The notes beneath the pieces were generated by a model that did no database searches, had not been told where the DNA came from, and saw nothing but the letters and a program-made list of their open reading frames with translations. Shown in pieces: positions 28,519 to 29,199 of a stretch of 50,647 bases of DNA (the stretch's first letter is position 1; every line of letters starts with the position of its first letter). Made by a program: the position numbers and the translations under genes. Source of the stretch: Lachnospiraceae bacterium (GTDB taxonomy: Bacteria; Bacillota; Clostridia; Lachnospirales; Lachnospiraceae); the NCBI GenBank assembly GCA_021153185.1, contig JAGKTY010000016.1, positions 1 to 50,647 on the forward strand, in the 5' to 3' direction.

Positions 28519-29199
28519 CTACAAAATGCAAACGTCTTCATCAAATGAGCCGGAAACGGCCATATCTTCATTCTTTCTTTGGATTTCCAGCTTGCTGACA
28601 CTAATCTCGTACGCAACGCGCTTTTGCGATTCCTCATCGCTGACTTTTTTCATGTATTCCCTGCTCTGGATACGTCCCCAGATACGGCAGCGCTCCCCGA
28701 CTGCAAATCCGCTTGCAAACCTCGCATTTCTGCCCCAGCTGATACAAGGGATGTAATCGCTTTTTCCATACGGTCTGTTGACTGCAAGCAAAATATCCGC
28801 AATCTCCCTGCCAAGCGGTGTTTTCCTGTAAACAGGTTCTTTACAAATATAACCATCCAAGAAAATCTGGTTCGTTTTCTCATTTTCCTCGATTTCCTCA
28901 ATAAAACACAGTTCTCTGACAAATACAGATAAAACCAGCTTATTGCGGTGTTCTTCATGTCTGTTATAAGAACGGAACTGCCCGATTACATATAAATAAC
29001 GTCCTGTGTAATCTTCTCTCGGATCAATCAAACGCTCCGAAACCATCAGCGGAATGTAATCGGCCGAATCCGAAAGACGCGGCACCTTTAAATCCACCGT
29101 ATAAAATCCTTCTCCAAATACTTCGTGGCTGAACTTAAGCGGGCCTGCCACCTCTCCCATGATTGTCACTTGGTTGTTTTGTGTCATCTTATCTGTCAT
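28519..29199 (-). CDS. Tandem OB-fold single-stranded-DNA-binding (SSB)-like protein, two SSB domains in one polypeptide
   Basis: 226 aa. Both halves follow the SSB OB-fold pattern (NQVTIMGEVAGPLKF...YIPLMV...YLYVIGQFRS and NQIFLDGYICKEPVYRKTPLGREIADILLAVNRPYGKSDYIPCISWGRNA...RCRIWGRIQSREY). No acidic C-terminal tail of canonical SSB. Confidence 0.5.
   Translation of the reverse strand: MTDKMTQNNQVTIMGEVAGPLKFSHEVFGEGFYTVDLKVPRLSDSADYIPLMVSERLIDPREDYTGRYLYVIGQFRSYNRHEEHRNKLVLSVFVRELCFIEEIEENEKTNQIFLDGYICKEPVYRKTPLGREIADILLAVNRPYGKSDYIPCISWGRNARFASGFAVGERCRIWGRIQSREYMKKVSDEESQKRVAYEISVSKLEIQRKNEDMAVSGSFDEDVCIL

Follow-up and report, generated by a model that had tools for sequence, protein, structure and literature searches.

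The window, a stretch of 50,647 nt of Lachnospiraceae DNA, encodes a 226-aa SSB paralog that is a member of an already named, partly crystallized and biochemically tested clostridial family. We consider it probable that this protein is an accessory ssDNA-binding protein of the PRK05813 (NF004476) family. The protein represents no new class, because that family has already been named and studied.

Family membership and domain architecture

The 226-aa protein scored 336.2 bits against the curated NCBIfam equivalog NF004476 (PRK05813), for which the cut-off is 171, with residues 1–212 aligned to model positions 1–212 of 219, and it displays the layout of that family, a single chain of about 200–225 aa in which one OB fold follows another. 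Since an identical copy is already present in public collections, and since all 8000 candidates scored in a protein search with the paralog had E ≤ 1e-3, the open reading frame is a real gene and not a chance one (Table 1). The peptide ADILLAVNRPYGKSDYIPCISWGRNA...RIWGRIQSREY, quoted in the initial annotation of this locus, is present in its product. The same annotation had called such a protein unusual here, a view that does not hold against a curated family of 1257 clusters (50% identity, E ≤ 1e-30) that was described in 2010 and 2012, with more than 560 places encoding a relative in GTDB species genomes among the matches listed and with copies on more than 600 viral contigs.

Table 1. Features of the SSB paralog and its surroundings, in window coordinates.
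Feature	Position	Strand	Basis or remark
CDS, two-OB-fold SSB paralog, 226 aa	28519..29199	minus	ATG-started ORF; NF004476, PHROG 26861, AlphaFold2
N-terminal OB barrel, residues 9–100	28900..29175	minus	divergent; PDB 4GS3 match, model strands
Inter-domain linker EEIEENEKT, residues 101–109	28873..28899	minus	acidic; between model barrels; variable in family alignment
C-terminal OB barrel, residues 110–206	28582..28872	minus	canonical SSB-like; Pfam SSB, Foldseek
C-terminal tail, residues 207–226	28522..28581	minus	short, acidic, predicted disordered, pLDDT 53–56, ends FDEDVCIL
Shine-Dalgarno AAAGGAG	29207..29213	minus	7 nt before ATG; read from sequence
Candidate sigma-E-type (mother-cell) promoter GTATACA-N13-CATATATT	29243..29270	minus	about 45 nt upstream of ATG
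CobA/CobO/BtuR-like P-loop gene, downstream	27902-28492 (ORF); 27902..28399 from probable internal ATG (MNQGKIHIYTGDGHGKT...)	minus	PF02572, 121.5 bits
typA, upstream, divergent	29380-31302	plus	neighbor of SSB paralog
Lysine riboswitch	27657..27828	minus	RF00168, 107.8 bits; start of separate dapA-dapB unit, bounds SSB-paralog unit

Each half of the chain is an OB fold that belongs to the SSB lineage, as had been proposed, and the evidence comes from Pfam SSB for the C half, from PDB 4GS3 for the N half, and from the structural model and Foldseek. When the Pfam SSB model was applied to each half, residues 110–205 matched PF00436 with 61.4 bits (cut-off 26), whereas the N half gave no match, so that this particular check succeeded for the C half only. 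Residues 4–101 matched 4GS3 with an E value of 1.7e-23, and Foldseek superimposed the N-terminal domain on that structure with a TMt of 0.88, an rmsd of 2.1 and 44% identity; the conserved motifs of this domain are FSH, GE.FY, RLS, D.IP, SER and GQFRSYN. The N half (residues 1–108) is acidic, with a pI of 5.0, and the C half is basic, with a pI of 8.35. Compared directly, the two halves show weak similarity (24% identity over 49 aa, pairwise E of 0.004). The AlphaFold2 model of the 226-aa protein (pLDDT 87.8, pTM 0.80) contains the two beta-barrels delimited in Table 1, and in this predicted structure the barrels of the one chain are packed side by side, as in the Thermus/Deinococcus SSB protomer.

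The signature residues for ssDNA binding by SSB, namely Y149, W155, G175-R176, Q178-S179-R180 and Y182, are retained in the C-terminal barrel, and Y149 and W155 occupy the positions of the SSB base-stacking aromatics. Across 61 family members, W155 and G175 are present in all 61, Y149 in 60 and R176 in 59, and position 170 is Arg in 20. Judged from the sequence, the conserved Y149, W155, R176, R180 and Y182 support putative ssDNA binding by the C half.

A profile search of a 5.8-billion-protein set with a diverse alignment returned only more Lachnospiraceae proteins of >70% identity, with no wider taxonomy gained. When the 100-residue 4GS3 fragment served as the query, all proteins retrieved were short or truncated (77–172 aa), and full-length Tte0829 was not among them. 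Proteins made of the N domain alone were considered as a natural split form and rejected: in the locus L081 the two domains are separated by an in-frame TAA, and the assemblies of two others (L083 and L084) have many fragmented genes.

Relation to replicative SSBs and to PriB

The top full-length Foldseek matches were the Deinococcus-Thermus SSBs (2FXQ, 2CWA, 1SE8 and 3UDG; TMq 0.67–0.70, TMt 0.70–0.78, 211–232 columns), and the resemblance to these proteins that had been remarked on initially is thereby borne out. The Deinococcus-Thermus proteins likewise have two OB folds per polypeptide in a similar mutual arrangement; however, their identity to the window protein is 15–19%, phmmer aligns the C half only, the N-terminal OB fold here fails Pfam SSB, and the canonical tail is lacking here. 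The two-OB chain of the window protein and that of Deinococcus-Thermus probably reflect independent duplications. Deinococcus-Thermus SSBs are the sole replicative SSB of their cells and form homodimers, each chain with a flexible tail that carries an acidic tip. The similarity in overall fold might suggest that the window protein is the main replicative SSB of its own cell in the same two-OB format, but we regard this as extremely unlikely, given that the linker and acidic tip retained by the Deinococcus-Thermus SSBs are missing here, that the score against TIGR00621 (ssb) is 32.4 bits, below the cut-off of 53.95, and that the gene stands outside the rpsF-ssb-rpsR context, which was not found around it (its neighbors are typA and cobO-like/dapA/dapB). 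T. tengcongensis, moreover, has two canonical single-OB SSBs besides its family member Tte0829 (PMC2887958). Within the 50,647-nt window, no canonical ssb or other SSB-like sequence was found.

The C-terminal OB fold gave an E value of 1.3e-8 with B. subtilis SsbA, and it resembles Bacillota SsbA and SsbB (6BHW, 3VDY, 5XGT) with about 29–30% identity, a Foldseek TMt of about 0.85 and a profile E of about 1e-16. In contrast to the window protein, SsbA and SsbB are single-OB homotetramers, and in SsbA a long disordered linker leads to a D-D-(L/I)-P-F tip. Neither a long Gly/Pro/Gln-rich linker nor a D-D-D-I/L-P-F-type tip was found in the 226-aa protein. The initial annotation had stated that there is no acidic tail, which is correct for the canonical linker and tip but not for the short tail that is present, since residues 206–226 have a pI of 4.1 and contain D/E at 5 of 21 positions, closing with FDEDVCIL. 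Tails in the family range from 0 to 27 aa and are often acidic, without a conserved motif. Because the SSB tail is missing, the usual SSB partner proteins presumably cannot be recruited, which argues that the protein is not a replicative SSB; it may instead be a specialized ssDNA coat or an ssDNA-processing factor.

The N-terminal domain of Tte0829 was reportedly crystallized by Liebschner et al. in 2012 and named TtePriB; PDB 4GS3 is this domain. The PriB name is used in the 4GS3 paper and in later reviews. It would imply that the family is the Firmicute counterpart of PriB, with one chain mimicking the PriB homodimer and working with PriA in replication restart, and the notion draws on two OB folds per chain being the size of a PriB dimer and on PriB likewise having no acidic tail. 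We judge it very unlikely. TIGR04418 (PriB) aligned over just 30 residues and yielded 15.2 bits (cut-off 72), and the family profile matched PriB chains with E values of 0.017–0.1 versus about 1e-16 for Firmicute SsbA/SsbB; the earlier suggestion of a primosome protein finds no support in these scores. The molecule name given by the 4GS3 depositors themselves is “Single-stranded DNA-binding protein.” Proteobacterial PriB (1V1Q, 2CCZ, 1TXY) shares with the window protein the OB fold, the presence of two OB units in the functional particle and the lack of a canonical acidic tail, but it has no significant sequence relation to it, belongs to another phylum, and differs in that primosome gene context is absent here: no priA, dnaD, dnaB or dnaI neighbors were found in the 80 + 4 chromosomal loci examined. 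In Bacillota, replication restart uses PriA-DnaD-DnaB-DnaI, without PriB. Moreover, the sigma-E control of the C. difficile homolog, described below, is ill-suited to a housekeeping restart factor. By sequence profiles, the family belongs with SSB and not with PriB, and these profiles leave the “PriB” label on 4GS3 unsupported.

EndoTT and the reported ssDNA cleavage

Tte0829 of T. tengcongensis has been studied as EndoTT: both of its halves bound ssDNA in vitro, and ssDNA cleavage was reported, by the full-length protein as well as by the C-terminal half alone, that was lost in the G170A, R172A and G177A mutants (PMC2887958). It closely parallels the window protein in length (216 versus 226 aa), in its OB folds (8–102 and 111–208 versus 9–100 and 110–206), and in lacking the canonical SSB tail. 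The two differ in source, a thermophile versus a mesophilic gut Lachnospiraceae, and in the 20-residue acidic tail here, which is not common to the family. The specialized ssDNA-binding role that the initial annotation had envisaged would, by analogy, fit the published biochemistry of Tte0829 (PMC2887958).

We mapped the EndoTT residues by means of the 21-residue peptide 170–190 printed in that study (PMC2887958). This peptide, the DNA-binding or “nuclease” segment, is identical to the window protein at 14 of 21 positions, and EndoTT G170-D171-R172...G177-R178 corresponds to G168-E169-R170...G175-R176 here. The residues reported as essential for EndoTT cleavage are all present, namely G168, R170 and G175. 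Their retention, taken together with the published cleavage and the three loss-of-cleavage mutants, raises the idea of a structure- and sequence-selective ssDNA endonuclease, whose C-terminal OB fold would bind and cut at ss/ds junctions via G168, R170 and G175. We find this idea unlikely. The two glycines and the arginine that follows are generic residues of the SSB beta4-beta5 hairpin (the aligned segment of B. subtilis SsbA is KGSLAGVDGRLQTRNY), so that the residues proposed as a nuclease motif are no mark of a nuclease site; the alanine swaps may just have disturbed the fold. Furthermore, R170 is Arg in just 20 of the 61 family members noted above, the family has no conserved metal-binding acidic cluster, and the EndoTT assays used a large excess of protein (25–50 pmol versus 0.2 pmol DNA), with 1 mM EDTA present in the base buffer (PMC2887958). 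No independent replication of the cleavage was found in the literature searched. We know of no OB-fold SSB that is a nuclease.

Conserved neighborhood, candidate promoter and phage copies

The SSB paralog is flanked, as originally described, by a CobA/CobO/BtuR-family gene downstream and by the divergent typA upstream. The CobO-like neighbor scored 97.6 bits with TIGR00708 (cobA), under the cut-off of 167.75, and it lies directly downstream of the paralog in 69 of 80 Lachnospiraceae loci; it is a conserved partner of the paralog and is possibly co-transcribed with it. A sigma-70-like site at 28532–28503 makes a promoter of its own possible for this gene, and the dapA-dapB unit beyond it has a TTGACA-17-TATGAT promoter at 27885–27857. 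The gene order typA / ssb - cobO-like - dapA - dapB - fbp is common to 80 Lachnospiraceae species. Distant Clostridia keep part of the synteny, with dapA/dapB/asd, polysaccharide deacetylase and SASP genes beside the paralog, and in the distant locus L081 the CobO-like gene sits two genes further on. The initial annotation had found no functional hint in this placement. The neighbors indeed carry none, but the neighborhood is conserved far beyond Lachnospiraceae and the promoter region is sigma-E-like.

The candidate promoter listed in Table 1 is the sole match to a relaxed sigma-E pattern on both strands of the whole window, where 0.59 matches are expected and where the pattern was fixed after the site had been seen. 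Its architecture resembles that of mapped C. difficile sigma-E promoters (15-bp spacing). No sigma-70-like site was found upstream of the SSB paralog on the same strand; typA and dapA have good ones. An Rfam scan of the 5′ region, in the window and in three relatives, found no known RNA. We extended the promoter comparison to the loci of 79 relatives, in which a strict sigma-E regular expression matched 10 and was replaced by a matrix derived from mapped C. difficile promoters. With this matrix, the mean score was 10.3 bits in the sense and 7.8 bits in the antisense direction (Wilcoxon p = 4e-8, the loci being related and not independent), and for 64 of the 79 loci the best match fell between −70 and −99 relative to the ATG. 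The matrix comes from AT-rich C. difficile promoters and discriminates poorly from sigma-70 −10 boxes; many relatives have a −10 box of TATAAT rather than CATA, and some carry textbook sigma-E sites, such as GTCATAA-N14-CATAAATT.

Two further candidates in the window bear on sporulation control. A match to the SpoIIID consensus WWRRACARNY at 29299–29308, upstream of the gene, was dropped as evidence because this consensus is too degenerate, occurring 48 times in the window versus 35 expected. A SigH-like gene in the window is borderline, at 207.1 bits against a cut-off of 208.

C. difficile CD3235 (“ssb”) is listed as a PRK05813 homolog of EndoTT (PMC2887958, Fig. 1), and it belongs to the sigma-E regulon, with a mapped sigma-E promoter (PMC3789822). 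Its transcript was 33-fold down in a sigE mutant (ratio 0.03) and 3.6-fold up in a spoIIID mutant (PMC3789822). Few genes of the mother cell during sporulation depend on sigma-E as strongly as CD3235 does. The likeness to the window gene consists of PRK05813 membership, by the published listing, and of a promoter region here with a sigma-E-like and without a sigma-70-like site; the difference is that sigE dependence was measured in C. difficile, whereas regulation in the window organism is read from motifs only. As its motifs suggest, the window gene would probably be expressed in the mother cell at an early stage of sporulation, from the sigma-E-type promoter, and perhaps together with the gene for the downstream CobO-like P-loop protein. 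CA_C2382 of C. acetobutylicum has been detected in ordinary culture proteomes (PMC4886415) and EndoTT in growing T. tengcongensis cultures (PMC2887958); expression is therefore not strictly limited to sporulation in every species. The link to sporulation draws on promoter-motif resemblance and on a single transcriptome study, made in one distant species.

The family is also widespread in phages. More than 600 viral contigs in IMG/VR carry a full-length copy, 55–68% identical to the window protein, which matches PHROG 26861 over the full two-OB length (E = 4.5e-35). Relatives annotated as SSB occur in isolated Enterocloster and Butyrivibrio phages (26–33% identity over about 200 aa), and identity reaches 67% in fecal phage genomes. 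The phage copies keep all family-invariant residues and adjoin genes for an SbcC-like ATPase, RecT and RusA. Among 80 viral loci kept for analysis, phage early or recombination genes lie within 5 kb in 60, and an SbcC-like ATPase is encoded no more than two genes downstream in 43. The PHROG 26861 and Enterocloster-Butyrivibrio phage proteins are thus found in recombination/replication modules, in contrast to the typA-dap neighborhood of the chromosomal copy.

Given this abundance on viral contigs, a PHROG of its own, relatives in isolated Lachnospiraceae phages, and the company of recombination genes in the counts above, the chromosomal protein could be a domesticated prophage SSB with a role in RecT/SbcC-like recombination or in phage defense or interference, and not in host development. 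We hold such an origin and role to be distinctly unlikely. The window copy sits in a housekeeping synteny shared by 80 Lachnospiraceae species and partly by distant Clostridia, no phage gene adjoins it, and host neighbors were found around the viral copies in 0 of the 80 viral loci; the chromosomal gene is therefore of long standing and has been inherited vertically. It is just as possible that phages acquired the gene from their hosts.

The family falls into two groups. One is the chromosomal copy in conserved synteny, which in C. difficile is under sigma-E control; the other consists of the numerous prophage copies that sit in recombination modules. The SSB that prophages in the same hosts employ in their recombination/replication modules would be of the same protein type, and this use argues for generic ssDNA binding as the core activity. 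Beyond the accessory ssDNA-binding role that we favor, we put forward tentatively, as possible rather than probable, that chromosomal PRK05813 is a factor of early clostridial sporulation, specific to the mother cell, that binds and perhaps also cuts ssDNA and acts with a CobO-like partner in a DNA transaction that Bacillus performs differently or not at all, and that prophages have borrowed the protein as an SSB. The transaction might concern the non-replicating mother-cell chromosome or excising elements. To our knowledge, no sporulation function has so far been assigned to any SSB paralog. As a discovery the protein has little value, its family having been named by annotation pipelines, with one member studied biochemically and half of it crystallized. 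What a single-chain SSB without the tail does in Clostridia that sporulate is, in turn, a testable question of moderate interest.

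Two OB folds in one chain

The SSB paralogue gene is real and conserved. Its ORF contains the peptide quoted in the initial annotation, public collections already contain an identical protein, and all 8000 relatives scored at E ≤ 1e-3. The Pfam SSB family (PF00436) matched residues 110–205 (61.4 bits versus a cut-off of 26), whereas the N-terminal half, searched alone, matched no Pfam family. Residues 4–101 match chain A of PDB 4GS3 (E = 1.7e-23), the N-terminal domain of T. tengcongensis Tte0829, reportedly crystallised by Liebschner and colleagues in 2012 under the name TtePriB. 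According to later papers, experimental demonstration of a full-length TtePriB pseudo-dimer is lacking. The two halves of the SSB paralogue are faintly similar (24% identity over 49 residues). An AlphaFold2 model, computed from an alignment of 74 sequences, is confident (mean pLDDT 87.8, pTM 0.80) and displays β-barrels at residues 9–100 and 110–206 separated by a short acidic linker, with a low-confidence tail past residue 206. When the whole chain was compared to the PDB by Foldseek, the best matches were two-OB SSBs from Thermus aquaticus, T. thermophilus, and Deinococcus radiodurans (TMq 0.67–0.70, TMt 0.70–0.78, identity 15–19%); the N domain matched 4GS3 (TMt 0.88, 44% identity) and the C domain B. 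subtilis SsbA (TMt ∼0.85, 29–30% identity). The tandem two-OB architecture proposed in the initial annotation is therefore correct, given 4GS3 on one half, Pfam SSB on the other, and the modeled barrels, as is its Deinococcus-Thermus analogy, given the top whole-chain matches.

That annotation also considered the protein unusual here, which it is not: the SSB paralogue belongs, as an ordinary member, to a widespread family that is known and already named (PRK05813). When 1.84 billion cluster representatives were scanned exhaustively with HMMER, 1257 50%-identity clusters fell in the family at E ≤ 1e-30, mostly of 200–230 residues, and a GTDB scan (one genome per species) yielded at least 560 confirmed relatives, the best 80 of which are all from Lachnospiraceae or unclassified Clostridia. 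This assigns the window to the Lachnospiraceae.

Lineage, proposed nuclease, and C-terminal tail

A primosome role had been suggested as one option. A family profile built from 61 diverse members detected Firmicute SsbA/SsbB chains at ∼1e-16 and Thermus/Deinococcus SSBs at 1e-10 to 1e-12, and PriB chains only at E = 0.017–0.1; the PriB model TIGR04418 gave the SSB paralogue 15 bits versus a cut-off of 72, and no primosome gene was present in the 84 chromosomal neighborhoods examined. These results place the family in the SSB lineage and speak against a PriB identity, so the protein was not filed as PriB, and the PriB label on the family is doubtful.

Zhang et al. 2010 (PMC2887958) named Tte0829 EndoTT, a PRK05813 member with OB folds at 8–102 and 111–208, and listed CD3235 of C. 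difficile and CAC2382 of C. acetobutylicum among its homologues. Each half bound ssDNA, and an ssDNA endonuclease activity, abolished by G170A, R172A, and G177A, was reported in the C half (PMC2887958). EndoTT residues 170–190 (GDRIRLWGRVQSREYQKKLGD) correspond to residues 168–188 of the window protein (GERCRIWGRIQSREYMKKVSD) with 14 of 21 identical, and therefore all three “catalytic” residues exist in the latter. When aligned with B. subtilis SsbA, this segment is an ordinary β4-loop-β5 hairpin (KGSLAGVDGRLQTRNY). Gly168 (57 of 61 family members) and Gly175 (61 of 61) are conserved for structural reasons, and the segment's arginine is shared by only 20 of the 61. The EndoTT assays employed a roughly 100-fold protein excess and a base buffer with 1 mM EDTA (PMC2887958). 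We regard the EndoTT-type nuclease activity as an unconfirmed and doubtful published claim.

The SSB paralogue has neither a Gly/Pro/Gln-rich linker nor a D-D-D-I-P-F-type tip, and, with 32.4 bits, fails to reach the 53.95-bit cut-off of TIGR00621, the model for canonical ssb. The canonical interaction tail is indeed missing, as initially annotated, but the absence of any acidic tail was slightly too strong a statement: an acidic stretch (pI 4.1) forms the final 21 residues and terminates in FDEDVCIL, with similar termini in the nearest relatives (e.g., ...EVCIFE, ...LDEVM). Among 97 diverse family members, the region past the last strand spans 0–27 residues and is often acidic, many members are essentially tail-less, and no common tail motif was found.

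Expression and chromosomal context

CD3235 (“ssb”) ranks with the genes of C. difficile that depend most strongly on σE (sigE mutant/wild-type ratio of 0.03), with a TSS-mapped σE promoter and a 3.6-fold increase in a spoIIID mutant; its protein was not detected in spores, and the adjoining CD3234 is down to 0.09 in the sigE mutant (Saujet et al. 2013, PMC3789822). Good σ70-type promoters precede typA and dapA in the window, and the strand that encodes the SSB paralogue has no σ70-like site 5′ of it. The candidate σE promoter (see table) is the sole match to a relaxed σE pattern in the whole 50.6 kb, where 0.59 matches are expected by chance and the pattern was fixed post hoc, with the site already seen. 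An AT-rich two-block matrix from 46 mapped C. difficile σE promoters scored higher on sense than antisense strands upstream of 79 loci, themselves related (10.3 versus 7.8 bits; Wilcoxon p = 4e-8); for 64 of the 79, the best match lies between −70 and −99. Several of the best matches are textbook σE sites, such as GTCATAA-N14-CATAAATT, and in many relatives the −10 box is TATAAT. The SpoIIID consensus was uninformative as evidence. Judged from these sites and by analogy to CD3235, the SSB paralogue is probably expressed in the mother cell during sporulation, from a σE-type promoter.

No sporulation-related gene other than the SigH-like one was seen in the window. Separately, most of the Lachnospiraceae loci L005–L080 share a conserved 5′ leader, GGAAAAAATTCTTAAnnnGTAAGAAGGGAGAAC, ∼20–50 nt before the start codon (e.g., L021, ∼5950–6000), whose inverted repeat TTCTTA/TAAGAA adjoins the Shine-Dalgarno sequence; a repeated TGACAG box lies farther 5′. 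The leader matches no Rfam family, is absent from the window gene, and could act as a hairpin in translational control or autoregulation.

Features of the window
Feature	Position	Strand	Remarks
Type I restriction-modification, N6_Mtase	287–1807	minus	
Type I restriction-modification, ResIII/EcoEI_R_C	1824–4211	minus	
NACHT + SNaCT14 protein	4229–6772	minus	847 aa; adjoins type I genes
Lysine riboswitch RF00168	27657–27828	minus	107.8 bits; 5′ of dapA-dapB
Near-consensus σ70 promoter	27885–27857	minus	precedes lysine riboswitch
CobO-like P-loop gene	27902–28399	minus	cobA equivalog, 97.6 versus cut-off 167.75 bits
SSB paralogue	28519–29199	minus	ATG start, 226 codons
Shine-Dalgarno AAAGGAG			7 nt 5′ of SSB paralogue ATG
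Candidate σE promoter	29270–29243	minus	GTATACA-N13-CATATATT; ∼45 nt before ATG
969-aa ORF	34930–37839	minus	no Pfam/NCBIfam match at thresholds used
SigH-like sigma factor	38104–38709	minus	207.1 bits versus sporulation SigH equivalog cut-off 208
139-codon ORF	42717–43136		no Pfam match; encloses RF01699
Clostridiales-1 sRNA RF01699	42737–42903	minus	118.9 bits, full length
ribBA	47138–48430		3′ of FMN riboswitch
Lumazine-binding/riboflavin synthase protein	48535–49200		3′ of FMN riboswitch
FMN riboswitch RF00050	49300–49415	minus	105.1 bits; 5′ of riboflavin genes

The SSB paralogue is flanked 5′ by the divergent typA and followed on its own strand by a CobA/CobO/BtuR-family gene (PF02572), dapA, dapB, and a class-3 fructose-1,6-bisphosphatase gene. 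The same order recurs in the 80 loci from Lachnospiraceae, 69 of which have the cobO-like gene. Because the lysine riboswitch, also found in the relatives L021, L049, and L053, precedes and controls dapA-dapB, these genes form a separate unit. Remote relatives of the Thermoanaerobacter protein are likewise encoded beside polysaccharide deacetylase, dapH, CobO-like, dapB, dapA, asd, and SASP genes. The CobO-like protein has an altered Walker A/P-loop (GDGHGKT), its gene also lies near the family gene in the distant clostridial locus L081 (4960–5496), and it may be a functional partner of the SSB paralogue rather than a B12 enzyme. The L081 family gene itself (3384–4055, metagenome contig) is interrupted, precisely where its two domains meet, by an in-frame TAA (...NPN*IFLDGYICK...) and is therefore called as genes of 107 and 89 aa; a natural split form was rejected in favor of a pseudogene, sequencing error, or read-through. 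Elsewhere in the window, the genes at 287–6772 likely constitute a defence island, and the 139-codon ORF is probably not a gene.

Phage-borne copies

A scan of IMG/VR revealed a full-length copy (55–68% identical) on more than 600 viral contigs, from which 80 loci were kept (L085–L164; match at ∼5001–5615 in each). The kept copies lie in early/recombination modules of prophages. None of the 80 has host neighbors beside the copy, and in 60, genes for phage early or recombination functions lie no more than 5 kb away; an SbcC-like ATPase (∼680 aa) lies within two genes 3′ of the copy in 43, and RecT-like annealing proteins (32), RusA (14), and anti-repressors (22) also occur. The window protein matches PHROG 26861 (E = 4.5e-35), the counterpart of the family, whose function label is still “unknown”, and isolated Enterocloster and Butyrivibrio phages encode two-OB relatives annotated as SSB. 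The phage copies retain all family-invariant residues and the short tails of the family, which argues for plain ssDNA binding as the predicted core activity of the two-OB fold. The SSB paralogue is most likely an accessory, tail-less, single-chain protein predicted to bind ssDNA.
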